Positions 3,701 to 44,601 are shown, counted from the first letter of the stretch. The stretch: 64,000 nucleotides of DNA from Kofleriaceae bacterium (GCA_965215005.1 CBDCCZ010000043.1:1-64000), one strand, 5' to 3'. Notes: generated by a model not told the origin, from the sequence alone. A program made the numbers and translations.

Positions 3701-6700
3701 ACTCGACTGGGGTCTAGAGAATGGCGAGTGGAGCGAGCGCGAGCGGGACGAGCAACAGTGCACCATCACCAGCCGCGCAACCCCAGATATCTGCCGATTC
3801 AAGCCTGCAGAGGGCGGCCAGCACCGGATCAGCGCTCGAATCCGCGACGAAAAGGGCCGCGTGAGCGAGAGTCAGCTCACGGTGTGGGTTGCGGGCGGCA
3901 AGTCGCCGCCGGCGCGCGGCGTCGAGATGGAAACCGTGGAGCTAATTCCCGATGCCAAGGAATACGCGCCGGGTGCGACCGCGAAGATTCTCATCCAGGC
4001 GCCCTTCGTGCCGGCGGAAGCGCTGCTTACCGTCCGCCGCTCGGGCATCGTGAGCACCCGTCGCTTCGCGATGACGAAGCCTTCGATGACGGTGGAGGTC
4101 CCCATCACTGCCGCTTACGTTCCCAACGTGTTCGTGCAACTCGACCTCATCGGCGCCGCCGCGCGCACCGATGAGCAGGGTCGCCCGCAGCAACTGCCCA
4201 AGCGTCCCGCCTACGCCTCTGGACAGCTCGAGCTCGCAGTGCCCCCCACCGACCGACGTCTCGAGGTGCGCGTCGACCCAGCGGCCAGAAAACTGGCTCC
4301 GGGCGCCAAGACCGAGCTCGGGCTCGAGGTGCTCGATGCTCGCGGTCGGCCGGTCGGCGATGCCGAAATCGCGGTGGTGGTGGTCGACGAAGCAGTGCTT
4401 GCCCTCACCGGCTACCAATATCCCGACCCGCTCGCCGCGTTCCATCCGCAACGCGGGCCAGGCGCACGCGATCATCACCTTCGAGCGGCGGTGACTCTGG
4501 CGCAGCCGCCAAGCGAGCTGCAAGCCGAGGTCGAAGAAGCCGCCATGGGCGCCGACATGATGGCCGCGGCTCCCGCGGCTCCACCGATGGCACGCATGGC
4601 AGCAAAGTCATCGGCGGGCGGCGCAGCGCCAACGCCCATTGCGGTGCGCGAAAACTTTGATGCGCTGGCGTATTTCGCGCCGGCCATTCGTACCAACGCC
4701 GCCGGTCGGGCCCGCGTCACCATCACCATGCCCGATAATCTCACTCGCTACCGCGTGGTTGCGATGAGCGCCACCGCCGGTCGCCAATTCGGCAAAGGCG
4801 AGTCGAGCATCACGGCGCGCCTGCCCTTGATGGTGCGGCCCTCGCCGCCGCGATTCCTCAACTATGGAGACCGCTTTTCGTTGCCCGTGGTGCTGCAGAA
4901 CCAGACCGATGCGCCCATGGAAGTTCGCGTCGCAGCTCGCGCCGCCAATGCCATGCTAGCGGCTAGCAGCGGCCGAATCCTCACCATTCCCGCAAATGAT
5001 CGCCGCGAGGTGCGGTTTGCCGCCACCACCGAGCAAGCGGGAATCGCGCGGTTTCAGATCGCCGCCGCTGCCGGCGGTGTAAGCGATGCCGCCGAGGTCG
5101 CGCTGCCGGTCTACACGCCGGCTACGACCGAGGCATTTGCCACCTATGGCGAGCTCGAGCGCGGCGCTCTTCGCCAACCCGTTGCGGCGCCCGGTGACGC
5201 TATCGCCAACTTTGGCGGCCTCGAAATCACCACTTCCTCGACGCAGCTACAGGCTCTCACCGACGCTCTCGTGTACCTCGTCGAGTATCCCTACGACTGC
5301 ACCGAGCAGGTCGCTTCGCGCATCTTGGCGGTCGCGGCGCTGCGCCAGGTGCTCGCTGAGTTCACCGCCAAAGATCTACCGCCGCCCGAGGAAATCGAGG
5401 CCGCCGTGGGCCGCGACCTCGAGCGGCTCGCGACCCTGCAGCAGCCCGACGGCGGATTTGGCTTTTGGCCGGGAAGCCAACGTTCGTGGCCGTACGTAAG
5501 CGTGCACGCCGCGCACGCGCTGCTCGCCGCAAAGCGAGAAGGCTACGCCGTGTCTGCCGAGGCACTCGAGCGCAGTCGCAGGTATCTCACCAACATCGAG
5601 AAGCACTTCTCCGCCGAGATGCATCCTTCCGTGCGTCATAGCATCCTGGCCTACGCCCTCGCGACGCGCCGCCGCATGGGCAAAGGCGACCCGCAACGCG
5701 CCAAGCGACTGCTCGAGGAAGTCGGCGTCGATAAGCTACCGCTCGAAGCGTTGGGCTGGATTTTGAGCTCGCTGCAAGGCGAGTCGAGCGCGCGGGCCGA
5801 GCGCGCCGCGATCCTGCGGCAGCTGGGAAATCGCGTGAGCGAAACCGCCGCCGCCGCCCACTGGACCACCTCGTATAGCGACGACGCGCACCTGCTGTTG
5901 CACTCGAACCGGCGCACCGATGCCATCATCCTCGATGCGTTGATTGCCGAAGCGCCCAAGAGCGACCTCATCGCCAAGGTCGTCCGCGGGCTACTCGCCC
6001 ACCGCACCCGCGGACGCTGGGAAAACACCCAGGAGAACGCGTTCGTGCTGCTCGCGCTGCGACGCTACTTCGACGTCTACGAAGGCGTCACTCCGAATTT
6101 CGTGGCGCGCCTGTGGCTCGGTGAGCGCTTCGCGGGCGAGCATCGCTTCACGGGGCGCACCACCGACCGCCAGCACGTAACCATCCCCATGGCGACTGTC
6201 GCGGCTGCCGGCAAAGCACCAGTGACTATCGATAAGTCGGGCGCCGGTCGTCTCTACTATCGCATCGGCATGAGCTACGCACCGCGCGACTTGCGACTCG
6301 AGGCAGCGGACTATGGCTTCGCCGTGGAGCGCCGTTATGAGCCCCTCGACGCGCCCAGTGATGTTCAACGCGACACCGACGGCAGCTGGCGCATCCGCGC
6401 TGGCGCGCGCGTGCGGGTCCGCGTGAACATGGTCGCGCCGTCGCGGCGGTATCACGTGGCGCTGGTCGATCCGCTGCCGGCGGGGCTCGAGGTTTTGAAC
6501 CCCGCGCTCGCGGTGACGGAGGAGCTCCCAGCCGATCCGGCCGCGCGCAACGGCTATTGGTGGTGGTGGCGGCCGTGGTATGAGCACCAAAACGTGCGCG
6601 ATGAGCGCGTCGAGGCGTTTACTTCGCTGCTGGCCGCCGGCGTCTACGAGTACAGTTACGTGGCTCGAGCCACCACTCCAGGGCAGTTCGTGGTGCCGCC

Positions 6701-6809
6701 CGCGAAGGCCGAAGAGATGTACGCGCCGGAGACATTCGGGCGCTCGGCTAGCGACCGCGTCGTCGTAGCCGCCGAAGGCGCCGCGGCACCCGCACAGATC
6801 GCCAAGTGA
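795..6809 (+). CDS. Bacterial alpha-2-macroglobulin family lipoprotein
   Basis: 2004 aa. Lipobox-like SLSC, N-terminal Ig-like repeats, DDRQMYRPGE (MG2), MPDNLTRYRV, thioester motif YPYDCTEQ, DPLPAGLE and PAKAEEMY. Confidence 0.93.
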   Translation: MMTSLRSCRSRRASLGVLFAVCTASLSCGAKKGDTSMTSRTPNSRPVVVAEPEPGLTLRLSDGEAVVATEQVPLADAKPLGEAETRAMLARLRPIAVAAEDRRDHVLRDGPKPPPRAGATVETPFPPPAAPALPATGAAEPLAVVRMAPQGPVPLAPHVSVTFSAPMVAVTGQNQAAASVPVTLTPSPPGTWRWLGTRTVIFSGDGRLPQATEYRVEVPATTRAANGAVIGTAAQWTFRTPPPTIEASYPTHGPQRRDTKLLVRFDQRVDPAAILEHLRVTADSQSFAVRALTEAERAAEPIASRLARARAQGHEERVVAFATTSLLPKDATVKVTVAAGAPSAEGPLVTEKPQSWSFRTYPPLRVAEARCGWGNQCPPLSPWTVRMNNPLAGDLDPATIDVRPALPGLRVEVLGDTIMLQGRSAGRTTYTVTLPASLRDEFEQELGRATEVTFRVGDAQPSLSGPTQPMVVLDPAAERPSFAVYSINHPKLRVRLYGVTPADWPAWQEYLRSPYIKGKRQTPPGKRVVDTVVEPRGPRDTLLETAIDLQPALPSGHGHVIAVVEPKDAARGDARVQAWVQATAIGLDAFVDDGELIGWASRLSDGASLPGVQLEIQPYGATAVTAADGTARITLPDRGQKSGSGVLLARQGDDVAMLPEDIHPWNQEGSWYRNRPATTLQWLVWDDRQMYRPGEHVHLKGWLRRIDWGEGGDLQPLDDAVSAVAYQAYDPLGNELASGRIDVSAAGGFDLELELPKTPNLGYARVELRPVGAKEESYSHSFQIQEFRRPEFEVVATASQGPHLVGQTAELTATASYYAGGGLSGAAVRWTVTASPTSFSPPGHDDFQFGVWVPWWGFGRGMPSEDQSRRYRHEARTDANGEHVLAMELVAANPPQPMSVVAEAVITDVNRQAQAARTTMLVHPAAHYVGLRTSKLFVDEGSEMVIEAIAVDHEGMLLTGRTIEMRAVRLDWGLENGEWSERERDEQQCTITSRATPDICRFKPAEGGQHRISARIRDEKGRVSESQLTVWVAGGKSPPARGVEMETVELIPDAKEYAPGATAKILIQAPFVPAEALLTVRRSGIVSTRRFAMTKPSMTVEVPITAAYVPNVFVQLDLIGAAARTDEQGRPQQLPKRPAYASGQLELAVPPTDRRLEVRVDPAARKLAPGAKTELGLEVLDARGRPVGDAEIAVVVVDEAVLALTGYQYPDPLAAFHPQRGPGARDHHLRAAVTLAQPPSELQAEVEEAAMGADMMAAAPAAPPMARMAAKSSAGGAAPTPIAVRENFDALAYFAPAIRTNAAGRARVTITMPDNLTRYRVVAMSATAGRQFGKGESSITARLPLMVRPSPPRFLNYGDRFSLPVVLQNQTDAPMEVRVAARAANAMLAASSGRILTIPANDRREVRFAATTEQAGIARFQIAAAAGGVSDAAEVALPVYTPATTEAFATYGELERGALRQPVAAPGDAIANFGGLEITTSSTQLQALTDALVYLVEYPYDCTEQVASRILAVAALRQVLAEFTAKDLPPPEEIEAAVGRDLERLATLQQPDGGFGFWPGSQRSWPYVSVHAAHALLAAKREGYAVSAEALERSRRYLTNIEKHFSAEMHPSVRHSILAYALATRRRMGKGDPQRAKRLLEEVGVDKLPLEALGWILSSLQGESSARAERAAILRQLGNRVSETAAAAHWTTSYSDDAHLLLHSNRRTDAIILDALIAEAPKSDLIAKVVRGLLAHRTRGRWENTQENAFVLLALRRYFDVYEGVTPNFVARLWLGERFAGEHRFTGRTTDRQHVTIPMATVAAAGKAPVTIDKSGAGRLYYRIGMSYAPRDLRLEAADYGFAVERRYEPLDAPSDVQRDTDGSWRIRAGARVRVRVNMVAPSRRYHVALVDPLPAGLEVLNPALAVTEELPADPAARNGYWWWWRPWYEHQNVRDERVEAFTSLLAAGVYEYSYVARATTPGQFVVPPAKAEEMYAPETFGRSASDRVVVAAEGAAAPAQIAK

Positions 6810-6934
6810 GCCAGCGGCCGCCAGCGCAGCGAGCCGGGCCCCCGTTACCCCGGGTTAGAACAAACCAGTGACGGGGGCTCGCTCCGAAGAGACGCCTGCA
6901 TACAATGGCGCCTCTTTTAGGAAGGGCTCGCTTC

Positions 6935-28307: not shown

Positions 28308-28400
28308 TTGCTTTGCTAGCGGTTTGCCGACTTACGCCGGCAAACCACTAATGCACCGCCGCGGGATTTAGGCTTGCCGACTTACGCCGGCAAACACTAG
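28308..28400. repeat. REP-like palindromic repeat, copies 2 and 3
   Basis: CTAGCGGTTTGCCGACTTACGCCGGCAAACCACTA (28316-28350) and GGCTTGCCGACTTACGCCGGCAAACACTAG (28371-28400); core TTGCCG-N8-CGGCAA. Confidence 0.8.
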
Positions 28401-29353
28401 CGCGTGACCTGCCGAAGGCAGCCGACGGCCCGCAGCGCGAGCACCAGCGAGGTCGCACGAGCGGTCATCGGCTCGATCGTCGGTGCTGCAGTCGTAGAGG
28501 TCGCGAAGGCATCGAGCCAGCGCTCGCGGGGTGGACGAGTTAAGATGCCTCCCAGGCTAAACAGCGCCAGGTCAGTGATGCCGGCGTCGCACGCGATGCG
28601 CGCGTCGTCCTCGAGCTCAGCCACCGAACGATACACTGGCTCGTCGCCAAGCGCCCCAACGCCGGTGACGCCGAGGGATAGGCTGGCTTTCTGGCCGAAG
28701 CGTTTGCCTGCGGCGCGCGCAACCAAGCCGAGCAGTGCGGTGGCGTCACGCCGGCGCAGCCAACCGCGGGAATAGCCGACGAGCAGCGAGCTATACATCA
28801 TGATATTGACGCGGTCGAAGGCGGCGAGCGGCGCTCCGAGCAGGCGCTCCCAGCCGCGATCGGAGTACGGCGCGCCAAGCGCGACCATTGGCGGCACGGT
28901 CGCGGTGACCGTCATGCCGCGGGCGTGGGCGTCATCGACGAGCCGCGCCAGGGGCGCCGCCGAGCCGCCGAGCCGCCACACCCGAAGGCAAGCGTGCAGC
29001 TGGCCGGCGAGCACCCCGCGCAAGAGCTCGATGGGCGGCTCGATATCGACGATGAGCTCGCTTGGCAGCACGGAGAGGCTATCGAGAAAGCGGAGCGTGG
29101 CATCGCGAAAATAATGAGCGTTGGCGCGACTGGCCCACCGGCCACGACTATCACTCACGAGATGCCAAATCGCGACGCGGACGCCGTTGTCGCTGCAGCG
29201 ATCTAACATCGCCGCAGCCGCGCCGCGCCGCTCGGGCGTTACCGCCACGTTGAGCCCGATGTTGCGCTCACGTAACGCGCGCAGTAGCGACTCGTCACTC
29301 AACACCGAGTAAGGAACGAGCTCGCTCCAAAGCTGGCGCCGCGCCCTGGTCAC
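28397..29353 (-). CDS. Hypothetical protein, probable glycoside-hydrolase-like TIM barrel
   Basis: 318 aa. LIVDIEP and FDRVNIMMY recall the GH18-type DxE and DxxNxMxY strands. Confidence 0.55.
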   Translation of the reverse strand: MTRARRQLWSELVPYSVLSDESLLRALRERNIGLNVAVTPERRGAAAAMLDRCSDNGVRVAIWHLVSDSRGRWASRANAHYFRDATLRFLDSLSVLPSELIVDIEPPIELLRGVLAGQLHACLRVWRLGGSAAPLARLVDDAHARGMTVTATVPPMVALGAPYSDRGWERLLGAPLAAFDRVNIMMYSSLLVGYSRGWLRRRDATALLGLVARAAGKRFGQKASLSLGVTGVGALGDEPVYRSVAELEDDARIACDAGITDLALFSLGGILTRPPRERWLDAFATSTTAAPTIEPMTARATSLVLALRAVGCLRQVTR

Positions 29354-29367
29354 GTTACGATGCCCTC

Positions 29368-30450
29368 ATGAAGATTCTTTACGGCGTCGTCGGTGAGGGT
29401 ATGGGCCACGCCATCCGCTCGCGCGTCGTGCTGCAGCATCTGTTGGCGCGCGGTCACCAGGTCGAGGTCATGGCCTCGAGTCGCGCCCATGGCTATTTGT
29501 CGCAGCGATTTAGCGGGGTCAACCAGATTCACGGACTGCACCTCGTGAGCGAAGAAAACCGCGTGCGCCTTGGCAAGACGCTGTGGTCCAACCTCGTGGC
29601 TGGCATCGGCGGGGTGCCGCGAAACATCGGCGCGTATTTCGAGCTCCTCGACGATTTTCACCCCGAGGTCGTAATCAGCGACTTCGAATCGTGGAGCTAC
29701 TACTACGGCAAAGCGCACGACTTGCCGACCTTCAGCATCGACAACATGCAGATCATCAATCGCTGCATGCATCCGCCCGAGATCCTCGCCGGACAACGCG
29801 TTCAGTTCGAGCTCGTCCGTGCGTTCGTTAAGAGCAAGCTGCCGTTCTGTCACCACTACCTGATCACTTCTTTCTTTCGCCCGCCGGTGCGCAAAGAGCG
29901 AACGTCGCTGTTCCCGCCCATCTTACGCGACGAGATCCTCCAGGCGACTCCACGCCGCGGCGACCACTTGCTCATCTACCAGACGGGAGAGACGTTCAAG
30001 GAGCTTGCCGATAGCCTGCAACGCGCCGGCATGGAATCGCGCGTGTATGGCATGCGCCGGGAGCTGCAAGCAGATGAGGTTGACGGCAACCTGCGCTTCC
30101 GACCGTTTTCCGAAGAAACGTTCATCGAAGATCTGGCCACCGCGCGCGCAGTCGTCGCTTCAGCAGGATTTACGCTCATGGGTGAAGCAGTCTATCTGCG
30201 CAAACCGATGCTCACGGTGCCACTGGGCAAACAGTTCGAGCAGCTCCTCAACGGCCGCTACCTCGAGCGCGAAGGCTTCGGCATGACCGCCGAGTCCCTC
30301 GCGGGAGGTCGCGTGCTAACCGACTTTCTCGCCAACCTCCCCCGCTACGAAGCCAACTTGACACGCTATGCACAAGCAGGAAACTCCATGCTCTTCGAAG
30401 CCCTCGACATCCACCTCGACCGCGCGGCGCGAGGCGTCTTCCGTGACTGA
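29368..30450 (+). CDS. MJ1255/VC2487-type GT-B glycosyltransferase
   Basis: MKILYGVVGEGMGHAIRS, VISDFE, SIDN, AGFTLMGEA and QFEQLLN. Confidence 0.87.
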   Translation: MKILYGVVGEGMGHAIRSRVVLQHLLARGHQVEVMASSRAHGYLSQRFSGVNQIHGLHLVSEENRVRLGKTLWSNLVAGIGGVPRNIGAYFELLDDFHPEVVISDFESWSYYYGKAHDLPTFSIDNMQIINRCMHPPEILAGQRVQFELVRAFVKSKLPFCHHYLITSFFRPPVRKERTSLFPPILRDEILQATPRRGDHLLIYQTGETFKELADSLQRAGMESRVYGMRRELQADEVDGNLRFRPFSEETFIEDLATARAVVASAGFTLMGEAVYLRKPMLTVPLGKQFEQLLNGRYLEREGFGMTAESLAGGRVLTDFLANLPRYEANLTRYAQAGNSMLFEALDIHLDRAARGVFRD

Positions 30451-31438
30451 TGCCGAGCAGCTCGAACGCATCGCCGCAGTCGTGCGCACGGTAATCGATC
30501 GCGAGTATCCCAGCAAGATCGGACACGTCCTCTTTTCCGCCGAGGATGCGCTGCCGCCGCGGGCCCTCACGCCGGTGTTCTTTGGCTGTTTCGACTGGCA
30601 CTCTGCGGTTCACGCCCACTGGACGTTGGCGCGCTTGCTGCGCGTAAAAGCCGCTCCTGCGCTACGTGCGCGCCTGCACGCTGCCCTCGCCAGCAGTCTC
30701 ACCGCCGACCGCGTTGCTGGCGAGCTAGCCTACCTTCGCCCCCGTCCGAGCTTCGAGATGCCCTATGGCGCCGCCTGGCTGCTTCGCTTGGATGCCGAGC
30801 TCGCCGCCGCGGCGCTGCCGTTTCGCCCAGCCCTGGCGCCGCTAGTGGAGCTCGTGCGCGAGCGCTTCGTCGAGTGGCTAGAGCGACTGCCCTGCCCCAT
30901 CCGCAGCGGTGAGCACAGCCAATCGGCATTCGCCATGACGCTGGCGTTCGACGCCGCGCAAGAGCTCGATGACCGCCCGATGATCGACCTGCTCATCAAA
31001 CGCGCGACGGACTTCTATCTCGGCGATCGGCACGCACCAATCAATTACGAGCCGTCCGCTTATGACTTCTTGTCGCCCGCGCTCGCCGAAGCCGACCTCA
31101 TGCGCCGCGTGCTGCCTACCAATGACTTCTTGCGCTGGCTCGAGGATTTTCTGCCACTCGATGAGAACACGTTCACCCCGGTTTCCTGCGCAGCTCCAGC
31201 CGACGGCAAGCTTGCCCACGCCGATGGCCTCAACCTCTCGCGAGCGTGGATGCTGCGCGACATCGCCCGACTGCTGGGCTCACCCGATCGAGCTCGCCGG
31301 GTCGCGGCGCTCGCCCATGCCCATGCAGCCGCCAGCCTCCCTGCTGCGCGCGGCGCCAACTACGAAGGCACGCACTGGCTCGGAACATTTGCCGTCTATT
31401 GGCTCACAGACCCCAGCCGGCCAGCACAGCAAGCGTAA
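30443..31438 (+). CDS. DUF2891 family protein
   Basis: FFGCFDWHSAVHAHW, FEMPYG, GEHSQSAF, DFLSP, DGKLAHADGLNLSRAW and YEGTHWLGTFA. GTG start overlaps the GT stop. Confidence 0.85.
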   Translation: MTDAEQLERIAAVVRTVIDREYPSKIGHVLFSAEDALPPRALTPVFFGCFDWHSAVHAHWTLARLLRVKAAPALRARLHAALASSLTADRVAGELAYLRPRPSFEMPYGAAWLLRLDAELAAAALPFRPALAPLVELVRERFVEWLERLPCPIRSGEHSQSAFAMTLAFDAAQELDDRPMIDLLIKRATDFYLGDRHAPINYEPSAYDFLSPALAEADLMRRVLPTNDFLRWLEDFLPLDENTFTPVSCAAPADGKLAHADGLNLSRAWMLRDIARLLGSPDRARRVAALAHAHAAASLPAARGANYEGTHWLGTFAVYWLTDPSRPAQQA

Positions 31439-31468: not shown

Positions 31469-32461
31469 TCAAGCCGCCATCGACATGACGAGTCGGCGCG
31501 CCTCGAGCGACCGCCGCGCCTCGACGACTGCCCGGCGCTCGATTGGGGCGCTGCATACCTGCTCGATGAGCTCACTGATGCGTTCCTCGAGCGTCCCGCG
31601 CAGCGGCTGCACCAGCCGTCCATAGCTGTACACGATGGTCTTGAGGTGATTGCGAACGCCGGCGCGCGTGGACTCGGTGATCGGCGCGTCGCCGAGCTTG
31701 CGCGCAACGTCTTCATCACGGCGGAGGCAAATCCGCTGCGAGGGCTCTAGCGCCAGATATGGAGCTGCCTTGCGCCGTCTATCGTCGAGCACGCGGCCGG
31801 CTTTGCAGTAAACGAAAGCCACCCGGCTCCCCACCCACTTGCGACACCGCTCATCAAAGAACGCCTCGCCGCCGACCGCCCGGCCGCCGCCGCCGTCGGT
31901 GCTCCAGCCAACCTTGATGATGCCGCGATACGCGCGATCAAAAAACGATACATCAGCCACCTGCCGCAGCACGTATTCGTGAGTTGAGCGCGGCGCATGC
32001 GCGGCGACCTCAGCGAGCGCTGCCCGATACGCCGCACTCGCATGAAACTGCGATGCGGTAACGATGTGCATCCGCTCGAGACCGGCTGCGGCGCGCGCTT
32101 GCGTGAGAAGTTGCACCGTCTCGAGAGTGCGACTTGCGACCGCGGCCGCGGCCAAGCCGTTGGCGCGCGCGTGCTCATCCGCCACCAGCACCACCGTGCA
32201 AGCGGCGCCAACCGAGCGCCGCACCACTTCGGCGGCGAGCAGCATTCCCAAGACATCCAGAGGCATCGCGCGGCTGAGCTCGGCGCGGGTGCACAGCCCA
32301 ATGCCCAAGAACACCGCGCCAGGACACTCACGCCCCGCTTGCCGAAGCGCGATCAGCGACGGGCGCGAAGCGATCAGCGGTTCTTGCAGGAGTGCTTCGC
32401 GCAGCTGCTTGCGCCACCGCGGCTCTCCAGACGCCACTTCTCTCTTTGCACGGGCCGTCAT
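31469..32461 (-). CDS. Class Ic aminoacyl-tRNA synthetase-like (TyrRS/TrpRS fold) protein lacking HIGH and KMSKS
   Basis: Collinear matches to archaeal-type TyrRS segments: VLVADEHARAN, AGLERMHIVTASQF, YVLRQVADV, AVGG. ATG at 32461 overlaps the sulfotransferase stop (TGATG). Confidence 0.6.
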   Translation of the reverse strand: MTARAKREVASGEPRWRKQLREALLQEPLIASRPSLIALRQAGRECPGAVFLGIGLCTRAELSRAMPLDVLGMLLAAEVVRRSVGAACTVVLVADEHARANGLAAAAVASRTLETVQLLTQARAAAGLERMHIVTASQFHASAAYRAALAEVAAHAPRSTHEYVLRQVADVSFFDRAYRGIIKVGWSTDGGGGRAVGGEAFFDERCRKWVGSRVAFVYCKAGRVLDDRRRKAAPYLALEPSQRICLRRDEDVARKLGDAPITESTRAGVRNHLKTIVYSYGRLVQPLRGTLEERISELIEQVCSAPIERRAVVEARRSLEARRLVMSMAA

Positions 32462-33390
32462 CAATGGAGAAACGCCGGAAGTCGCCATTCGACACCCGGT
32501 CGTGACAGCGGTTGTCGTTGCCAGCGCGCAAACACCTCGCGCTGAGCAGGCGTGAGCATCTCGTCGCCCTCCCGCGTGGTGCCCTTGCGTAGAAAGCGTC
32601 CCTCGGTGATACCGCGCTGCAACACCAGCTCACCCACGTGATCGAACTTATCCTCGTGCTGCTTCATGACGGCGAACGAGCTCTGCTCGACTACGCGTGC
32701 GATCTGGCTAGAGGTTGCACGGATGTTCAGATGATTCGCCATCGCGGCGATCGCGGCTGCCGTGTTGCCGCGCAGGTCCTCGTAGCGGATCAGCAACACG
32801 CGGGCGTTCTCGCGTTGTTGCTCCCAGCCAGCCACGTGCCGGCGCCAAGAGCCATATTGCAGTCGGCCGGCGATGAAGCGCTCAAAGAATTGCTCGAAGC
32901 TGCCGCAATAGCCAAGGTGCGAGCGATACAGGTGGTAATAGGAGACGGCTACATCGCGGCCATCGCGCTGCAAGTATACGAATCGGCCTACGGATGGCAG
33001 CCACCGGTACGGCAAGTGGGTCTTGAAGATGCGCGGCGACGGCAGCTCAGCGAAACGCTCGCCGGTGCCGTAGGCAAAGGAGCGCTCCCACCAAGGCGAT
33101 ACCGCGCTCAGATGACGAAAGTCGCTGAAGCGATTGCCGGCGAGCAAATACAAGATGAATTGCGTCCACGTGGTTCCCGACCGCGGATAGCTGGCGACGA
33201 AGATATCGTCGGGTCGAGGGCGGAACCTGCTCCGTTCGCTCAAGAACCGCGCAACGCGAGCACCATCCGCCAATCGATCGGCGGCTCGGTCGAGGGCATT
33301 GCCCACGTTTCCCAGAACGGTGGAGAGAGTATCGGTCACGGCGCTAGACTGCACTTGCACCGGGTTGCCGCTCACCCGCCCCCCGCTCAC
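32461..33390 (-). CDS. PAPS-dependent sulfotransferase (Sulfotransfer_1)
   Basis: 5'-PSB loop DDIFVASYPRSGTTW, IFKTHLP, 3'-PB RDGRDVAVSYY, YEDL and FLRKG. Confidence 0.92.
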   Translation of the reverse strand: MSGGRVSGNPVQVQSSAVTDTLSTVLGNVGNALDRAADRLADGARVARFLSERSRFRPRPDDIFVASYPRSGTTWTQFILYLLAGNRFSDFRHLSAVSPWWERSFAYGTGERFAELPSPRIFKTHLPYRWLPSVGRFVYLQRDGRDVAVSYYHLYRSHLGYCGSFEQFFERFIAGRLQYGSWRRHVAGWEQQRENARVLLIRYEDLRGNTAAAIAAMANHLNIRATSSQIARVVEQSSFAVMKQHEDKFDHVGELVLQRGITEGRFLRKGTTREGDEMLTPAQREVFARWQRQPLSRPGVEWRLPAFLH

Positions 33391-34853
33391 GGCGTATCGG
33401 TGAAGTAGAAGTAGGTTCCATCTTTATGCGTGACGGCATGCCAGCCTTGTGGCAGCGCGATCGCGCTCCAATAGTACAACCAGCGCGCATCCGCCGGCGG
33501 CACATTGGTGCAGCCATGGCTCTTGGTGTTGCCAAACTTGTTGTGCCAGTAGGCCCCGTGAAGCGCGAAATTTCGGTGATAGAACATGGTCCAAGGCACT
33601 TCCTGGACCTCATAGCGGCCACTCTCGTCGTCCTTGCCGCGCATGGTCTTGGTTAGGTACTTGCGGTTCACTCTATAGAGACCGGTTGGAGTCTCGTAGC
33701 CATCTTTCCCGCTCGATACCAGCGTTGCGTAGACGGGCCTGTCGCCTTCGTAGGCCACGAGCGCTTGCCGCTCGAGGTCGATATGCACCCACTTCTCCTC
33801 GGCCGGAACGCCCTTGGGCCGCGCGATTTTGCGCACTAGCCGCACCGCCTCTTCGGCCACCGCAAAGTCGCCATCGCTGCGCACGTAGCGCTTGCCCTCG
33901 ACCTCCACCACGCCAACCGAGGTGAAGCGCGCCTGCTGCTCGGCAATGCCACACTCGCGCGGCCCGTCCACCTCCATGCACACCAGCGGCGCCTCTTGCG
34001 CGACGAACGCCAACGGCAAGCGATAGCGCTCCCCTAGCTGCTCGCCACGCATCGGCGGTTGATCGAGCACCTTGACGTCTTGCGCACGCACATATCGGCC
34101 GCGAATGGTGCGATAGAAGCGCTGCTCGCCAACCCGCTCCTCTCCGACCAGCGCCAGGAAGTAGTCGCCTTCCAACCACTCTTCCACTACGTCCGGGGTA
34201 CCGCCGTCGCCGTCCATCGCGCGATCGAGCTCGCGCACCTCAGAGGCGCTCGGCAGCCGATCCAGACGCGGCGCTCGCGGCGTCATCACGCGCCCGTAGC
34301 GAAACGGCACCGCGGTGTTTAGCCGCGGTCGCAACACCGACAACTCGCGGCTGCGATCGGGTGAAGCCAGCGCCAGCCCATCAGCGGAACACGCATAGCC
34401 CCCGCCGAGGACCTGGTACCAATTGCCGCGGCAGCCGCGGCCGCTGACCTTGCGGCCATACACCCGCGCGCCCTCCCGGAAGTGGCCGATTTCGAAGCTC
34501 GAGCCGCTCCGCGCATAGATGGGAACCTCAAACTCGGTGACGAGCAGCGTCGTGGGGTAATCAGCGCGATCCTCGTTCCCCGGATGCCAGTCGGTGCCCC
34601 CAGGGCCGAGGGTTGGCACCCAACCGTGCATCGACGGCGCTGCGAGCACCAGCTGCCCATCTCGACCGGGCCTGGGCGTGCCGCTAACAGCCAGTGCGGG
34701 CTCGAGCGCAGCTTCGCTGAGCGAGCTCGAGTCACCGTCCTCTTGCTCGTGTTCGCTTGGATCGGCGCTGTGCGCGCTGCCGCCAGCGGATGCGCAGCCT
34801 AAAGCGACCACGCTGGCTGCAAGGCATGAACATCGAAGCCTTCGCCAATACAT
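33387..34853 (-). CDS. L,D-transpeptidase (YkuD family) lipoprotein
   Basis: Lipobox ALGC; C-terminal VSSGK..TPTG and ALHGAYWHNKFGNTKSHGCTNV. Confidence 0.92.
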   Translation of the reverse strand: MYWRRLRCSCLAASVVALGCASAGGSAHSADPSEHEQEDGDSSSLSEAALEPALAVSGTPRPGRDGQLVLAAPSMHGWVPTLGPGGTDWHPGNEDRADYPTTLLVTEFEVPIYARSGSSFEIGHFREGARVYGRKVSGRGCRGNWYQVLGGGYACSADGLALASPDRSRELSVLRPRLNTAVPFRYGRVMTPRAPRLDRLPSASEVRELDRAMDGDGGTPDVVEEWLEGDYFLALVGEERVGEQRFYRTIRGRYVRAQDVKVLDQPPMRGEQLGERYRLPLAFVAQEAPLVCMEVDGPRECGIAEQQARFTSVGVVEVEGKRYVRSDGDFAVAEEAVRLVRKIARPKGVPAEEKWVHIDLERQALVAYEGDRPVYATLVSSGKDGYETPTGLYRVNRKYLTKTMRGKDDESGRYEVQEVPWTMFYHRNFALHGAYWHNKFGNTKSHGCTNVPPADARWLYYWSAIALPQGWHAVTHKDGTYFYFTDTP

Positions 34854-34944
34854 CCGATCATTGTAATGGATCCTGCCGCCGCACGCGAAAACTCACGACG
34901 ACGCCGCAGCCGTAGCAGCAGCAGCTTGTGGTAAAAACGCGCCG

Positions 34945-35367
34945 ATGCGGCTCCTGGCGCCTCCGATCAACGATATCAGCACCGACTTGAACGACCCGCC
35001 GCCCCTCGCCGGGCGCTCTAGCGACTACCCCGAGCGGCTCAAAGCAACCGTTGCCAAACACTACGCGCACCTCCGACCGCTGAGCGTGTCGCAGTCTGCT
35101 AGCGATGTTCTCGCGGCCGCCGCCGAGTTGGTGCGAAGCAACGGTTGGCGACTGGAGCAGCTCGACGAGAAGAACGGCCTTCTCCACGGCGTAGCGATCA
35201 CCAAGCTCTTCAAATTCAAAGATGACCTCACCGTCCGGGTACGCTCGCAAGGCACCGGCAGCCTCGTCGACATGCGTTCGAGCTCGCGGCTCGGCAAAGG
35301 CGACTTCGGGGCCAATGCCGAGCGCATCGAGAGCTTCTTTGCCGCGCTCCGCGCGCGCCTCGGCTAG
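34945..35367 (+). CDS. DUF1499 domain protein
   Basis: PPINDISTD, LFKFKDD, VDMRSSSRLGKGDFGANAERI. Confidence 0.85.
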   Translation: MRLLAPPINDISTDLNDPPPLAGRSSDYPERLKATVAKHYAHLRPLSVSQSASDVLAAAAELVRSNGWRLEQLDEKNGLLHGVAITKLFKFKDDLTVRVRSQGTGSLVDMRSSSRLGKGDFGANAERIESFFAALRARLG

Positions 35368-39453: not shown

Positions 39454-39595
39454 ACGCACGGCACCGCGGGATTGGCGTGCGGTTGCCCCTGCTCGGCGTC
39501 TCCTGCCCACGACAATGCGACGGTGCTCACGGATCGAGGTTGGTGCGGAACGGTATTCGGGGCGGCTACCCACTTGTACTTCCTCAGCTTTTCAC

Positions 39596-39625
39596 ATGTC
39601 ACTCCTCTGACAGAGAGCTGTCACA
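39596..39625 (+). promoter_or_regulatory. Pho-box-like 11-bp direct repeats
   Basis: TGTCAC (39597), TGACAG (39608) and TGTCAC (39619) at exact 11-nt spacing upstream of the lipoprotein-TBDR locus. Confidence 0.55.
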
Positions 39626-39701
39626 GAGCCTGCCGAGTATGCCCCCGAACACCACCCAGGTGGGCTCGTTGCCTACGCAGCGGAGCCAGGAAGGCGTATT
39701 C

Positions 39702-41033
39702 ATGTTTAGTCTCAAGCATCAAACGATCCTGCTAATCGCTGGCGTTGCCTTGGCGATGGCCGGTTGCGGCGACGACGATGGCGGCACCGACAATCCGGGA
39801 ACGAACCCCGACGCCGGCGGCGGCGGCGACGGCGATCCCACCGGGGCAGATTGCCCAGACCATCCCAGTGTCACGGAGATGAACGGCGTGTGCGTCATCT
39901 CCGGTGGCAGCGGCTCGGAGGTCACGCAAGACCTTACGCTGACTGCCGACAAGGCCTGGTTCTTGAATGGCGCCGTCTTCATCGGAGACGACGCCGGCAA
40001 GACGGTGCTCACCATCGAAGCGGGCACGACCATTCAAGGTGGCGATACGAGCTTCTTGCTGATCCAGCGTGGCTCACAAATTATGGCAGAGGGCACCGCG
40101 GACAAGCCCATCGTCATGACGTCCGCACTGCCGGAAGGCGAGCGTGGCTCATCGGATTGGGGCGGCTTGATCATCAACGGCAAGGCCCCCCTCAACTACG
40201 GCGCCAACAATGAAGCTGAAGGTGAAGCCGGCACTGGAACCTTCGGAGGCACCGACCCCGCCGACAATAGTGGCGTATTAAAGTACGTTCGCGTCGAGTA
40301 CGCAGGCGCTTTGGTGGATGCCCAGAACGAGCTGAATGGCATCGCATTTCAAGGCGTTGGTAGCGGCACCACTGTCGACTACGTGCAGACCTATCTCACC
40401 GCCGACGACGGCATCGAGTTCTTTGGCGGCACGGTCAACGTGAAGCACGTCGTCATTTCTGGCGCAGACGACGACTCGATCGACTGGGTCGGTGGCTGGA
40501 GCGGCAATGCTCAGTTCCTAGTGGTAGAGCAGCTTCCTGACAGTGGTATGGAGGCCGAGCGCGGCATCGAAGCTGATAATCTCGAGGCCGATCCAACGGC
40601 CACTCCGTACTCAGATCCCGTTCTATCGAACGTGACTCTCGTAGCCCGTGCCGGCAACGGCGCGACTGGCGCACAGTTGCGCCGCGGCACCAAGGGCGAG
40701 CTCCACAACTTCATCATCACCGGCTTCGGCGGTCCCTGCATCACCGTTGACGGCGACGAAACTGCGGCCAATGTTGCCGACAACTCGCTCGTCATTGCCA
40801 ATCACGTCCACAACTGCACTGGCGCGCTCGATGGAGCCGCAGTGGACCTTGCGGCAGGTGCAAACGTGGTCACCGGCGACCCGATGCTTGATGATAACTG
40901 GATGCCGATGACTGGCTCGCCTGCTCTGGGTATCGGTGCGGCACCCGCCGGCGCATTCTTCGAAGCGGTTGACTACGCCGGCGCCTTCAGCGCAACCGAA
41001 AACTGGGCCCAGGGCTGGACGGCCGCGAACTAA
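39702..41033 (+). CDS. Acidic lipoprotein, probable beta-helix, of the type encoded beside TonB-dependent receptors
   Basis: Lipobox MAGC then GDDD; GTADKPIVMTS, WGGLII, DNSGVLKYVRVEYAG, DDGIEFFGG and DDSIDW. Confidence 0.8.
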   Translation: MFSLKHQTILLIAGVALAMAGCGDDDGGTDNPGTNPDAGGGGDGDPTGADCPDHPSVTEMNGVCVISGGSGSEVTQDLTLTADKAWFLNGAVFIGDDAGKTVLTIEAGTTIQGGDTSFLLIQRGSQIMAEGTADKPIVMTSALPEGERGSSDWGGLIINGKAPLNYGANNEAEGEAGTGTFGGTDPADNSGVLKYVRVEYAGALVDAQNELNGIAFQGVGSGTTVDYVQTYLTADDGIEFFGGTVNVKHVVISGADDDSIDWVGGWSGNAQFLVVEQLPDSGMEAERGIEADNLEADPTATPYSDPVLSNVTLVARAGNGATGAQLRRGTKGELHNFIITGFGGPCITVDGDETAANVADNSLVIANHVHNCTGALDGAAVDLAAGANVVTGDPMLDDNWMPMTGSPALGIGAAPAGAFFEAVDYAGAFSATENWAQGWTAAN

Positions 41034-41268
41034 CCCGAGGCTCATGAGGTGAGATGAGAGCCAGAGCTCTCATTTCACTCGACACCCTGGTGGCGGATTC
41101 GGCCCAGGAGATGCTCGCCAGCTTCGAGCGCAGCCCAATGCTGCGGCTCCGATGACTTCGCAGTTTCTTCTTGGCACGGCCGTCGCCAGGGTGCTGTCCG
41201 TTGACGAGTCCGAAGTTGCAGGGTGGCGGCAACGTCTCGTTGTGACGCCAGAGGTCCTTAGAAGTCAT

Positions 41269-44200
41269 ATGCGCGCCAGCTATCACGCACTCCTTCTGCT
41301 GCTCATTGCCTTCGGGATGATGTGCTTCGCACCGTCTGCCCACGCGCAGACTGCGGCCGATCCTCACACTGAGCCGTCTTCCGAGGTCCCGCAGACAGGC
41401 GCCGAGGCCCCTGAGGCGGTGCCAAGTGAAGATCGCGCCAGTTCTCCTCAGCCGGTTACTGCCGAGCCTGAGGCTACGTTGGTTTCGCCGCCAGGAGTCG
41501 AACAGCGAGGCGGCGAGCTCCGCATGCTGGTGTTCGCTGGGGCCACGCCGCTGACCGGAGTCACTGTAGAAATCGGCAACCAGAGCCGCGTGACCAATGA
41601 GGAAGGCAGTGCGGTCTTCAGCCTTCCTGCCGCCACTTACGTTCCTCACGTATTGATACCGCGTGCGTTGCTACCGGGCGCGGCGCGCACAGACGGGCCT
41701 GTGATCACCTCGACCGTACCGATGATAGTTATCGAGGGAGAGCAGATAGAAGCCATCATCACGGTCGACTCCAGCGGTAAGATTCAAAAAGCCGATATCG
41801 AGACGCCAGGCGCGGGTCGCGCCGCCGAAACACGCCGCGCGGAAAACTTCGAGGAGCGGCGCCGCAGCGGTCCCCAGGGCATCGTCCGCGGCATCGTGTT
41901 CCTCGGCGAACAGGGCGAGAAACGGCAACCCATCGCTGACGCACGTGTATTCGTACGAGGCGCCCCGGTGGAGGCAGTGACCGACGCTGAGGGCACGTTC
42001 AAGCTGGAGTTACCGGAAGGCACCTACGACATCGTCATCATTCACTCGCAGTACACGACGAAAAATCTCGAAGACGTAAAAGTAGACGCCAACAAGCCGC
42101 AAGATGTCCGGGTGAGGGTGGAGAAAGCCACTCCACAGCTCGAAGCCTTCGTCGTCACCGCTCCTCATATCGAAGGCGGCGTGGCCTCACTCGTTGCCGA
42201 ACGCCGCGAGAGCTCGAGCGTCGATGACGTCATCGGCGCCGCGGAGATGTCTCGTTCTGGTGATGCCGACGCCGCCGGTGCGCTCAAGCGGGTCACCGGC
42301 ATCACTGTAGTAGGTGGCCAGTTCGTCTACGTGCGTGGCATGGGCGAGCGCTATTCCGCAACTCTATTGAACCAGCATTCCGTTCCCAGCCCAGAGCCCG
42401 AGCGTCGCGTGATTCCGCTCGACTTGTTCTCCACGGACGTCCTCGAGAGCGTCGTAATCCAAAAGACGCCCTCCGCCGACGTGCCAGGGGAATTCGGCGG
42501 AGGGCTCGTCCTCCTTCGTACCAAGACGTTTCCCGAAGAGCTCACTGCCGCGGTCTCCGTATCGACTGGCCTTGTGACGAACGCGACCTTTCGCGAACGA
42601 CCGAGCTACGAGGGCGGCAGCCTCGACTTTCTCGGAACCGACGACGGTACCCGAGAGCTGCCCCAAAAGATCCGCGAGAGCTCTCCCATCCGTGCGGGTA
42701 ACCCAGTGATTCCCGGATATTCTCCGGAGGAACGCGCGCAGCTAGGACGCCTCCTATCGAACAACTACAACCTTCGCTACAAGCGGGTTGCGCCCAACTT
42801 GGGTCTCGATGCAGTCATTGGCGATAAGCTCCAGCTCGCCGGCATACCTATCGGGTTTCTCATCGCGGGCTCCTATGACAACGTCCACCAATACAGGGAA
42901 GACGTGTTCCGCACGTACATCCCATCTACGACCAGCGAGGGGGGTCTCGAGGTGGCAGACGACGTCGTCATATCCGACGCGACCAACTCTATCTCGTCGA
43001 GCGTCATCGCTGTCGCAGGAGCCGAGCCGGCCGAAGGACAGCTCTTAAAGGCTACGACCCTGCTCCTTCGTGTGTCCGATGATCAAGCGGCTGCTTCCAC
43101 CGGCCGCAATGAGGACCAGGGTGCCCTGATCCGGCGGGCGCGTCTGCGCTTCGTAGAACGGCAGGTCTTCAGCCAGCAAATATCAGGTTCGCACACGCTG
43201 CCGCAGCTGACTGACGCTACCTTGGATTGGCGCTACGCCTACTCACGCGCCATGCGCGCCGAGCCGGACCGCCGCGAGTATTTATATGTCGATGAGTCAG
43301 GAGGTGCTTCTCCACCTGACTTCCGGCTTTCCGGGATCACCGGCGAGAATCAGCGCGTCTGGAATGACCTATCGGATCAAGTTCACGACGCAGGCGTCGA
43401 CTACTTGCAGCCGTTCACGGTCTGGGGAGATCTAGCCGCCTCGGCGAAGTTCGGCGGCGTCATTACGACGCGCGAGCGCCAGTTCGACACGTTGCGACTC
43501 AACTTTTTTGCGCCTCGAGGATTTCCGGCTGAGCTCAACAGACAAACGCTCGAGGAGATCTGGTCGCCCGAACATATCAACGCAGACGGTGGCTGGATCC
43601 TCGCGGACGCTACGCAGGCAACCGATGCCTACACGGCGGAACAGCAAATTCAAGCGGGCTATGCGATGGCGACGCTGCCCATCGCCACGGCGGTAGAGGT
43701 CACCGCCGGCGCGCGCGTTGAGCGTTCGCGGCAGCGGGTCTCTACCTTTGATCCGTTCGCCAACGACGATGCCGCGCAGCAAGCCGAGCTGAACAATACC
43801 GATCTTTTGCCTTCAGCGACGGCTAAGTGGCAGATCAGCGATGAGCTGGTTCTCCGCGGCGGTTACGGTCGCACACTCACTCGTCCCGACTTTCGTGAGC
43901 TCTCCGAGTCGGAATACCGCGACGTAGTCACCAACCGCCGGTACAAGGGCAATCCTGAGCTCCAGCGCGGCACTATTGACAACATCGACGCCCGGCTCGA
44001 GTACTACTTTTCGACGGATGAGTTGGCCTCCATCTCGGCTTTCTACAAAGCGTTTCGCGACCCAATCGAGCAGATCGACACCGCCACCACCGATCGAACG
44101 ATCAGCTGGCAGAACGTCGACAGTGCGCGGAACCTTGGTGTGGAGCTCGAGCTACGCCGGCGCTTCGGCTTTGTCGCAGACAGCCTTGACGAGGTTTTTG

Positions 44201-44601
44201 CGGCCGTCAACGTCGCTCTGATTCAGTCTCAAGTTTCCATTGGTGAGGACAACGTTAGTACGTCAAAGAGTCGGCCGCTGCAGGGACAGTCTCCTTACGT
44301 AATCAATCTCCAGGGAGGGTATGACGATGAGGGAGACTCTGGACTGACGGCAACGTTCCTCTACAACGTGTACGGGCGCCGCATTCGCGACGTAGGCCGC
44401 TACCAGACCCCCGATGTCTACGAGCAGCCCTACCATCAACTCGATTTCGTCCTCAGCCAGAAATTCGGCGATGGTTGGCGCGTCAAGTTCAAGGCAAAGA
44501 ACCTGCTCGATCAAGAAGTGCAGTTCTTGCAGAGTACGCGAGTTCAGCGCAGCTATCGCAGCGGCCGCGCATTCACGATCTCGCTTGGTTGGAGCTACTG
44601 A
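41269..44601 (+). CDS. TonB-dependent receptor with N-terminal carboxypeptidase-regulatory-like domains
   Basis: Signal peptide from ATG 41269 (frame open from 41152); plug ALKRVTG...YVRGMGERY, PLDLF, RPDFREL, GNPEL; C-terminal ISLGWSY. Confidence 0.93.
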   Translation: MRASYHALLLLLIAFGMMCFAPSAHAQTAADPHTEPSSEVPQTGAEAPEAVPSEDRASSPQPVTAEPEATLVSPPGVEQRGGELRMLVFAGATPLTGVTVEIGNQSRVTNEEGSAVFSLPAATYVPHVLIPRALLPGAARTDGPVITSTVPMIVIEGEQIEAIITVDSSGKIQKADIETPGAGRAAETRRAENFEERRRSGPQGIVRGIVFLGEQGEKRQPIADARVFVRGAPVEAVTDAEGTFKLELPEGTYDIVIIHSQYTTKNLEDVKVDANKPQDVRVRVEKATPQLEAFVVTAPHIEGGVASLVAERRESSSVDDVIGAAEMSRSGDADAAGALKRVTGITVVGGQFVYVRGMGERYSATLLNQHSVPSPEPERRVIPLDLFSTDVLESVVIQKTPSADVPGEFGGGLVLLRTKTFPEELTAAVSVSTGLVTNATFRERPSYEGGSLDFLGTDDGTRELPQKIRESSPIRAGNPVIPGYSPEERAQLGRLLSNNYNLRYKRVAPNLGLDAVIGDKLQLAGIPIGFLIAGSYDNVHQYREDVFRTYIPSTTSEGGLEVADDVVISDATNSISSSVIAVAGAEPAEGQLLKATTLLLRVSDDQAAASTGRNEDQGALIRRARLRFVERQVFSQQISGSHTLPQLTDATLDWRYAYSRAMRAEPDRREYLYVDESGGASPPDFRLSGITGENQRVWNDLSDQVHDAGVDYLQPFTVWGDLAASAKFGGVITTRERQFDTLRLNFFAPRGFPAELNRQTLEEIWSPEHINADGGWILADATQATDAYTAEQQIQAGYAMATLPIATAVEVTAGARVERSRQRVSTFDPFANDDAAQQAELNNTDLLPSATAKWQISDELVLRGGYGRTLTRPDFRELSESEYRDVVTNRRYKGNPELQRGTIDNIDARLEYYFSTDELASISAFYKAFRDPIEQIDTATTDRTISWQNVDSARNLGVELELRRRFGFVADSLDEVFAAVNVALIQSQVSIGEDNVSTSKSRPLQGQSPYVINLQGGYDDEGDSGLTATFLYNVYGRRIRDVGRYQTPDVYEQPYHQLDFVLSQKFGDGWRVKFKAKNLLDQEVQFLQSTRVQRSYRSGRAFTISLGWSY

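Follow-up and report, generated by a model that had tools for sequence, protein, structure and literature searches.

Results

Three coupled genes at one locus

We analysed a 64,000-nucleotide (nt) stretch of DNA from Kofleriaceae bacterium (GCA_965215005.1 CBDCCZ010000043.1:1-64000), hereafter the window, with positions counted from its first letter. Three consecutive minus-strand open reading frames (ORFs) at 31469-34853 encode an L,D-transpeptidase (LDT), a 3′-phosphoadenosine-5′-phosphosulfate (PAPS) sulfotransferase (ST), and a protein that resembles a tyrosyl-tRNA synthetase (TyrRS). The GC content around the locus is ~0.62-0.67, and the features of the trio are as follows.

33387-34853, minus strand: LDT, 488 amino acids (aa), ATG start
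33387-33390, minus strand: GTGA overlap between the LDT stop codon and the ST GTG start codon, read from the sequence (CCG TGA, GTG AGC)
32461-33390, minus strand: PAPS sulfotransferase, 309 aa, GTG start
32459-32463, minus strand: TGATG overlap between the ST stop codon and the TyrRS-like ATG start codon, read from the sequence (CAT TGA, ATG ACG)
31469-32461, minus strand: TyrRS-derived protein, 330 aa, or 339 aa with initiation at the ATG at 32488

An earlier note, made from the sequence alone, had described three overlapping minus-strand genes joined by GTGA and TGATG; both junctions are confirmed in the sequence, and the three genes are translationally coupled. The 330-aa form of the TyrRS-like protein, which is P0004 in the protein collection, starts at the internal ATG at 32461; initiation at the alternative ATG at 32488 would extend the overlap with the ST gene to 28 nt.

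The trio is conserved across lineages and gene orders

Phyletic occurrence was surveyed in 401 Myxococcota genomes. The TyrRS-like gene is present in 18 of these, namely the window genome and 17 of the 18 genomes of one other genus, from uncultured Polyangiales and denoted g10. An ST orthologue tier scoring at least 461 bits is found in exactly those 18 genomes, while ST matches elsewhere reach at most 173 bits and lack the N-terminal ~45 positions. Likewise, an LDT orthologue tier of at least 688 bits is confined to the same 18 genomes, and the paralogues that are widespread in the class score at most 351 bits. The g10 genome without the TyrRS-like gene (G085, 100% complete) is also without top-tier ST and LDT genes.

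Gene neighbourhoods corroborate this pattern. We inspected 12 g10 loci from the 17 carrier genomes; all 12 hold LDT and ST orthologues within 4 kb, with the TyrRS-like gene convergent, and in 11 a TauE/SafE-family exporter and an M23 peptidase lie in between as well, the TauE gene being placed between LDT and ST. Scans of metagenomes and genomes supplied nine more loci (L031-L034 and L037-L041). All three genes are present in four of the nine: L032, L037, L039 (a metagenome-assembled genome, MAG, of Haliangium sp.), and L040. In L031, the LDT gene is followed by the family gene and the start of an M23 gene, at which point the contig ends. The gene orders are listed below, with a slash where the strand changes.

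Window and L039: LDT > ST > TyrRS-like
L037: LDT (minus strand) / TyrRS-like > ST > M23
L040: LDT (minus strand) / TyrRS-like > ST, with CysD and CysN directly after LDT
L032: LDT > TyrRS-like > x > ST > M23
g10: LDT > TauE > ST / TyrRS-like

The trio is co-located in at least six Myxococcota lineages and in four gene orders; an M23 peptidase gene is a frequent companion, and CysDN accompanies it in one case. Four-nucleotide overlaps couple other pairs elsewhere, TyrRS-like with ST in L037 and L040, and LDT with TyrRS-like in L031. In L040, LDT is succeeded on its own strand by the sulfate-activation genes CysD and CysN (4412-6906), the junctions being gaps or overlaps of 3 nt and 1 nt; the pair would seem to supply activated sulfate specifically to the module in that lineage.

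Could the three genes be neighbours by chance, with no functional link? Flanking genes differ between lineages, and stop/start overlaps by themselves are common in GC-rich operons and genomes; it is the conserved co-location, and not the overlaps alone, that raises the trio above chance. Its occurrence in four gene orders, the coincidence of the three orthologue sets genome by genome, and their joint loss in G085 speak against such an explanation, and chance adjacency is effectively refuted. The earlier note had made its proposal hinge on homologues being co-located with ST or LDT genes in other genomes; that co-location is kept across lineages and orders, and the orthologues co-occur. Its claim that the three genes form a coupled unit is borne out by the junctions, the synteny, and the genome-by-genome co-occurrence. 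Taken together, the trio very probably constitutes a real functional module, one that belongs to Polyangia-class Myxococcota.

Other genes near the module were recorded. At L039, the trio has a gene of the peptidoglycan peptidase family Peptidase_M15/DUF882 (3901-4629) 2 kb upstream and TusA, PALP, and ThiF genes downstream. A Mur-ligase-like PgsB gene and a gene annotated ‘poly-gamma-glutamate system protein’ (487 aa) adjoin the module in all 12 g10 loci (for example, L019 10400-13324). We considered this pair as a peptidoglycan link and rejected it; the two are regarded as unrelated neighbours, and both are absent from the window genome.

In the window, the trio is bounded downstream by two convergent plus-strand genes, a glycosyltransferase gene (29368-30450; Glyco_trans_1_3, 4.5e-139) and a DUF2891 gene (30368-31438; 4.7e-107), whose ORFs overlap by 83 nt as listed and leave a 30-nt gap to the trio. 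Upstream, a plus-strand DUF1499 gene (34945-35367), followed by msrA, occupies most of the 540-nt gap before LDT; a minus-strand ORF within this gap (34858-35250) is probably spurious. No tRNA gene or Rfam element was found close to the locus, and a promoter and terminator scan of the locus gave no signal exceeding that of shuffled sequences. Further afield, the window ORFs at 28397-29856 (minus strand) and 39477-41649 (318, 168, 518, and 220 aa) match no Pfam family, and 41152-44601 (plus strand) encodes a large TonB-dependent receptor whose N-terminus carries a CarboxypepD_reg domain.

A TyrRS fold that has lost its ATP motifs

The product of 31469-32461 eludes family annotation. It has no Pfam match at the cut-off (best, DUF1177, E 0.073) and no NCBIfam match, and the class Ic synthetase family PF00579 is absent from its matches at E ≤ 1. 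A whole-genome PF00579 scan returned two canonical genes only, a TyrRS and a tryptophanyl-tRNA synthetase (TrpRS) encoded elsewhere in the genome; since these are kept, the TyrRS-like protein is an accessory and not a housekeeping enzyme. Matches to LDH (E 0.016) were dismissed as a short chance stretch for which the fold gives no support, and a search of the ESM Atlas gave no usable match.

The relationship to TyrRS emerges from the predicted structure. An AlphaFold2 (AF2) model built with 16 homologues has a predicted local distance difference test score (pLDDT) of 90.5 and a predicted template modelling score (pTM) of 0.89. All rows listed by Foldseek for this model are TyrRS or TrpRS (best E 1.7e-7). 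VIA-align placed the Aeropyrum pernix TyrRS (2cya) at Z 20.7, with 264 residues aligned at a root mean square deviation of 3.6 over model residues 14-312; other TyrRS and TrpRS matches have Z 14-19, with TrpRS at 18-19 and the double-length TyrRS of Leishmania major (3p0h) at 17.4. The model comprises a class Ic Rossmann domain and a C-terminal helical domain of the anticodon-binding type, of which helices 263-283 and 291-304 are predicted at a pLDDT of ~98. A family profile compared with the PDB reached human TyrRS at E 0.023, through the LvADeHA/LFADLHA and dEDVarKL/kEDVKKKL stretches. The protein would thus descend from an archaeal/eukaryotic-type TyrRS. The aminoacyl-tRNA synthetase (aaRS) fold that the earlier note had assigned is confirmed by structure and not by sequence family, and its description of a degenerate TyrRS-like enzyme also holds, the activation motifs HIGH and KMSKS being absent.

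To define what has been lost and what has been kept, residues were counted in 85 diverse members of the family. Ten are invariant: G53, G55, P67, Y163, K183, W186, E199, P234, Y235, and R243. A further set is nearly invariant, comprising D69, D95, H97, A98, D170, D198, D203, Y218, G222, E250, and K255. The resulting signature reads G53-x-G55, P67-x-D69, A-D-x-H97-A, Y163-x3-[Q/E]167-x2-D170, K183-V-G-W186, D198-E199-x2-F-D203, Y218-x3-G-R223, P234-Y235, and R243. Between G53 and L75 there is no conserved histidine in these members, the invariant positions there being G53, G55, P67, and D69; an insertion of ~9 residues carrying the invariant P67-x-D69 stands at the expected position of HIGH, and hhalign, at low confidence, places an insertion where HLGN sits in the genome’s own TrpRS. 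Similarly, residues 222-243 contain no KMSKS-like string in the 85 members and read G-R-x-L-D-x-R-P-K/R-A-x-P-Y...R. With both motifs lost, the protein is presumably no longer able to use ATP.

The amino acid pocket appears to have fared differently. Y163 (85/85), position 167 (Q in 43, E in 42), and D170 (77/85) reproduce the spacing of the TyrRS tyrosine pocket and align with YMLLQAYD of the genome’s own TyrRS (hhalign probability ~2%). In the accessible text of one structural study, the tyrosine-binding residues of Methanocaldococcus jannaschii TyrRS are given as Y151, Q155, and D158, which have the same spacing, and the residues of the cyclodipeptide synthase (CDPS) AlbC that correspond to Y163 and Q/E167 are Y178 and E182 (PMC3105412). 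D198-E199 is GxDQ-like, with DE replacing DQ. The apparent retention of the pocket residues, the DE pair, and a C-terminal domain of the tRNA-binding type, together with the loss of the ATP motifs, most likely means that the protein binds a pre-activated tyrosyl ester.

The AlbC correspondence bears on the model put forward in the earlier note, in which a CDPS-like enzyme makes a tRNA-derived dipeptide or diketopiperazine that is then sulfated. The two systems share a logic, to the extent that the available text describes it (the class Ic fold without its ATP motifs, and a pocket Y and E as in AlbC Y178/E182; PMC3105412), and CDPS structures do match the TyrRS-like model. Those matches have Z 7.8-11.5 and are confined to its first domain (~27-223), against Z 20.7 for a full-length TyrRS that fits much better, and the protein possesses a C-terminal domain that CDPSs are described as lacking (PMC3105412, available part). 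The protein resembles CDPSs less than it does an entire TyrRS. The CDPS catalytic serine, reported there as strictly conserved, stands two residues after the pocket glycine (G35-x-S37 in AlbC; PMC3105412). With G53 as the pocket glycine, the most natural register, that position is the invariant G55. The register is ambiguous, and with G55 as the pocket glycine the serine equivalent becomes position 57, where 73 of the 85 members have C, S, or T (C 55, S 12, T 6) and ten have A, V, or L (A 7, V 2, L 1), among them the entire g10 clade, in which the module is retained. No CDPS Pfam family appears among the matches at E ≤ 1, and no tailoring oxidase or other CDPS-cluster gene lies near the locus. 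Diketopiperazine chemistry is accordingly not supported, and we consider it very unlikely.

The sulfotransferase and the L,D-transpeptidase are intact

The ST matches Pfam Sulfotransfer_1 (PF00685) over residues 60-295 with E 1.5e-48, and has no signal peptide. Its closest solved relatives (E 1e-38 to 1e-35) are SULT1C2 (5.9e-38), SULT1B1, the tyrosine-ester sulfotransferase 2zpt (3.2e-36), and estrogen sulfotransferase. In the SULT1C2 alignment it keeps YPRSGTTW, KTHLP, and RKG..G.., and YPRSGTTW, KTHLP, and RKG are invariant in nine orthologues; we take these motifs to be the PAPS-binding loops and the catalytic histidine. An N-terminal extension of ~45 residues is conserved only among the orthologues in the module, and the genome carries two adenosine 5′-phosphosulfate (APS) kinase genes. 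By these sequence criteria, the ST is a cytoplasmic PAPS-dependent enzyme of the animal cytosolic SULT type, of the phenol/tyrosine-ester kind, with its PAPS motifs intact; the Sulfotransfer_1 match and the retained motifs agree with its first annotation as a PAPS sulfotransferase. A complex prediction for the ST with the TyrRS-like protein scored 0.00, which says nothing either way.

The LDT matches Pfam YkuD (PF03734) over residues 354-463 with E 2.3e-19. Its catalytic motif SHGCTN aligns with that of the Enterococcus faecium L,D-transpeptidase (Ldtfm), with SHGC kept, and H446, G447, and C448 are invariant in nine aligned orthologues. In its AF2 model (pLDDT 77.8), residues 351-486 match the fold of a Mycobacterium smegmatis LDT (VIA Z 15.7), and three N-terminal modules (~98-163, 182-264, and 279-341) match SH3b cell-wall-binding domains at VIA Z 5-6.6, a similarity that is weak but repeated. 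The N-terminus, as read from the sequence, is hydrophobic and signal-like. The predicted features are those of a secreted or anchored, SH3b-bearing YkuD enzyme with an intact motif. Where the earlier note had called it a YkuD lipoprotein, the YkuD part stands and the lipoprotein part does so only partly: a lipobox-like VALGC follows the hydrophobic N-terminus in the window copy, and its cysteine is not conserved in eight aligned orthologues.

A wider family, fused to TyrRS and found in archaea

A word-indexed search with the TyrRS-like protein returned 16 proteins including the query, one of them a hypothetical protein of Haliangium ochraceum (P0007). A divergent clade from uncultured Polyangiales/Myxococcales gave 176 clusters, all annotated ‘hypothetical’. 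An exhaustive profile search over clusters at 50% identity extended the family to 589 representatives at E ≤ 1e-3 (463 at ≤ 1e-10, 282 at ≤ 1e-30). One member, at L038, is 44% identical and comes from a MAG whose title, Robiginitomaculum sp., is alphaproteobacterial, on a contig of 63% GC; lateral transfer or a binning error could account for it. Among the best 150 of the 589 matches, four are fusion proteins, with a complete, canonical TyrRS as the second part in three and a GNAT domain in the fourth.

P0198: family domain followed by a bacterial-type TyrS
P0204: TyrS followed by the family domain; cluster of 3 members, with P0204 on 6 contigs; sources NCBI, JGI, and Logan
P0233: family domain followed by an archaeal-type TyrRS
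P0193: 581 aa; GNAT (Acetyltransf_6, PF13480) followed by the family domain; singleton on one 60-kb contig

The TyrRS halves of P0198, P0204, and P0233 keep HLGH/KMGKS, HIGH/KMSKS, and HVGY/KMSAS, respectively, and their family halves keep the family invariants. Their sources annotate them simply as ‘tyrosyl-tRNA synthetase’, and they may be the housekeeping TyrRSs of their organisms with an added domain. Fusion in both orders, and to both types of TyrRS, gives the best indication that the family acts on something that TyrRS produces or binds.

The family also extends to a DPANN archaeal phylum, with a match in nine of 301 genomes, seven of them strong. In four of the six DPANN loci examined (L061-L064), the next gene after the family gene encodes an amino acid racemase, and an Lrp/AsnC regulator gene faces the family gene in L061, L063, and L064. 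L060 has a different Lrp/AsnC-type gene, and its neighbours encode carboxylate-amine-ligase-like, enolase-superfamily (dipeptide-)epimerase-like, and glutamine amidotransferase proteins; L064 adds a biopterin-type aromatic amino acid hydroxylase, and L041 has a HisC-like aminotransferase. Such a cluster for amino acid stereochemistry is unexpected in genomes of 1.3 Mb. The core activity of the family would then concern an amino acid, plausibly an aromatic one, and of this activity the myxobacterial module would be one use.

The archaeal neighbourhoods raise the alternative that the TyrRS relic handles D-tyrosine or other D-amino acids, binding or deacylating D-Tyr-tRNATyr while the ST detoxifies the free amino acid and the LDT and M23 enzymes exchange or remove peptidoglycan D-amino acids. 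LDTs exchange D-amino acids, a TyrRS fusion is the expected look of an in-cis editing domain, and the racemases, together with the dipeptide-epimerase-like gene at one DPANN locus, fit as well. The racemase association does not extend to the myxobacterial loci examined, where none was found; nor can hydrolytic residues be assigned in the TyrRS-like protein. D-Tyr-tRNA deacylase (DTD, PF02580) is kept in the carrier genomes G000, G029, G403, and G404, and DTD2 (PF04414) in three of five DPANN carriers, so that the family was rejected as a replacement for this activity. Overall, we regard the D-amino acid explanation as improbable.

A second alternative holds that the relic is a non-catalytic pseudo-enzyme, either a tyrosine sensor or a TyrRS partner that regulates envelope genes or translation. 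Both ATP motifs are lost, Lrp/AsnC regulators adjoin the DPANN copies, and the fused relatives resemble a pseudo-dimer of one active and one degenerate half, as in the double-length TyrRS of L. major; TyrRS pseudo-dimers are described in the accessible part of a review of aaRS duplications (PMC9437257). The ten residues that are invariant in the family lie in or around the former active site (for example, K183, W186, E199, P234, Y235, and R243), as do many nearly invariant ones, a pattern that looks like catalysis or precise ligand handling, and translational coupling to the ST suggests a shared substrate. A purely regulatory role is consequently doubtful, and we give it little weight.

A model for the module

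A model for the module can be assembled from these observations. The TyrRS relic would bind, without making it, an existing tyrosyl ester, namely tyrosyl-adenylate or the 3′ terminus of Tyr-tRNATyr; reuse of the pocket for an activated ester would follow the same logic as in CDPSs, as far as the available text goes (PMC3105412), and the complete-TyrRS fusions of its relatives fit this reading. The ST would O-sulfate the phenol of tyrosine with PAPS, a step proposed because phenols and tyrosine esters are the substrates of its nearest relatives of solved structure. Either the product itself or a peptidoglycan precursor that bears it would reach the periplasm, where the dedicated SH3b-YkuD LDT would install or cross-link it in the wall and, in most lineages, a dedicated M23 endopeptidase would trim it. 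For the whole chain, in which tyrosine or a tyrosyl ester is handled and O-sulfated and a peptidoglycan feature is served by a dedicated LDT, we estimate a probability of about 0.4 from the sequence and model evidence. On its individual parts, tyrosine or a tyrosyl ester is the somewhat favoured ligand of the relic, and the use of charged tRNA is plausible, the TyrRS fusions of its relatives pointing that way.

A more specific version casts the relic as a Tyr-tRNATyr-dependent tyrosyl-transferase acting on a peptidoglycan precursor, with the ST then forming sulfotyrosine, the LDT cross-linking or installing the stems, and M23 trimming them. This version is speculative. If true, it would represent a second independent aaRS-to-transferase transition beside the CDPSs and a sulfated, tRNA-dependent peptidoglycan decoration in diderm bacteria; elsewhere, a relic fused to TyrRS or placed near racemases would divert tyrosyl-tRNA to other products.

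Several observations weigh against a sulfated tyrosine product in the wall. The phyletic test effectively compares two lineages, both of which also contributed sequences to the ST and LDT models. Four of the nine further loci (L033, L038, and the DPANN-type L034 and L041) are without LDT or ST; at L038, neither is found within 9 kb upstream, with only 1.3 kb of contig downstream. DPANN and other loci that carry the family without LDT and ST imply a core activity independent of peptidoglycan. The residue matches to TyrRS come from hhalign at 1-2% probability and from motif spacing, without coordinate superposition; a similarly spaced motif, presumably the TrpRS pocket, is visible in the genome’s own TrpRS, and the two synthetases score similarly by fold (TyrRS Z 20.7, TrpRS 18-19). 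The g10 clade has SN and Q in place of H97 and D170, respectively, so that the pocket differs there though the module is conserved. The stretch was found in no RNA run among the runs searched; the one run that contains it is of unrecorded type and probably represents the source sample. We know of no sulfated peptidoglycan or cell-wall sulfotyrosine, and literature searches for either found nothing.

The altered g10 pocket also speaks for an alternative in which the module is real and its substrate is not tyrosine, or its product is not a peptidoglycan component but, for example, an exported sulfated small molecule or signal, with LDT and M23 linked for regulation or physiology only. The exporter of a TauE/SafE anion-transporting family between LDT and ST in 11 of the 12 g10 loci fits such a product, and SULT-type enzymes, judging from the names of the solved relatives, take many phenols and alcohols. 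Against this stands the dedicated LDT orthologue, which co-occurs strictly and is coupled to either partner depending on the lineage, a pattern that would be puzzling if the genes did not serve a common product, and tyrosine is indicated by the conserved Y/QE/D motif and the fusions to TyrRS. We judge a different substrate or destination to be unlikely.

Discussion

Novelty and significance

The module is a variation on a known theme, in which a tailoring enzyme accompanies an aaRS descendant that has given up amino acid activation. It would be categorically new if the peptidoglycan-sulfotyrosine model is true. Full-text literature searches found nothing describing a set of TyrRS-like, ST, and LDT genes, with most subscription journals outside their coverage and the absence to that extent unproven; the earlier note had likewise known of no described system with this combination. 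The accessible part of the 2022 review of aaRS duplications gives no function for TyrRS-like paralogues beyond TyrZ and the double-length TyrRS (PMC9437257). The unnamed family, with its 589 clusters from bacteria and DPANN archaea, would join the short list of aaRS descendants that work outside translation, and would be the first TyrRS-derived one besides the CDPSs. Its strict tie to a phenol-type ST and a dedicated LDT suggests an undescribed wall chemistry, either peptidoglycan sulfation or tyrosine decoration, on which the three genes offer a concrete handle. The TyrRS fusions provide an independent entry point, placing the relic beside the enzyme that makes its presumed substrate.

Comparison with known systems

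The nearest relatives by fold are the archaeal/eukaryotic-type TyrRSs (class Ic, PF00579). The window protein shares with them the whole-chain fold including the C-terminal domain, the ADxHA strand, the EDVxxKL stretch, and DE in place of DQ, as well as, judging by spacing and a low-confidence alignment, the Y-x3-Q/E-x2-D pocket motif; it differs in lacking HIGH and KMSKS, in possessing the P67-x-D69 insertion of ~9 residues, and in going undetected by PF00579.

The CDPSs (AlbC, Rv2275, YvmC) are likewise derived from class Ic synthetases, have lost the ATP motifs, and keep the pocket Tyr and Glu/Gln. They are described, in the text available, as taking the aminoacyl moiety of aminoacyl-tRNA into the old amino acid pocket (PMC3105412). 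Unlike in CDPSs, the serine of G35-x-S37 has no invariant counterpart in the window protein, and the structural match stops at the end of its first domain.

The trypanosomatid double-length TyrRS (3p0h) resembles P0198, P0204, and P0233 in joining an intact TyrRS to a degenerate TyrRS-like half. The window protein, in contrast, is single, at 330 aa; the degenerate half is a family in its own right and not a recent duplicate, and the fusions of its relatives occur in both orders and with either bacterial- or archaeal-type TyrRS.

In Deinococcus, TrpRS II and nitric-oxide synthase provide a further parallel, a class Ic paralogue paired with an enzyme that modifies an aromatic side chain (PMC9437257, accessible part). 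TrpRS II is an active synthetase, whereas the window protein lacks the ATP motifs and its putative partner is an ST.

Finally, Gram-positive systems for tRNA-dependent peptidoglycan branching comprise Fem/MurM transferases, Ldtfm, and lysostaphin-type M23 enzymes with SH3b domains. By analogy, the module would bring together a candidate user of aminoacyl-tRNA, an LDT, an M23 peptidase, and SH3b-like domains, and one family member (P0193) is fused to a GNAT domain of PF13480. It differs from those systems in that the transferase candidate is derived from an aaRS and is not of the Fem fold, in that an ST is included, and in that the host is a diderm myxobacterium.

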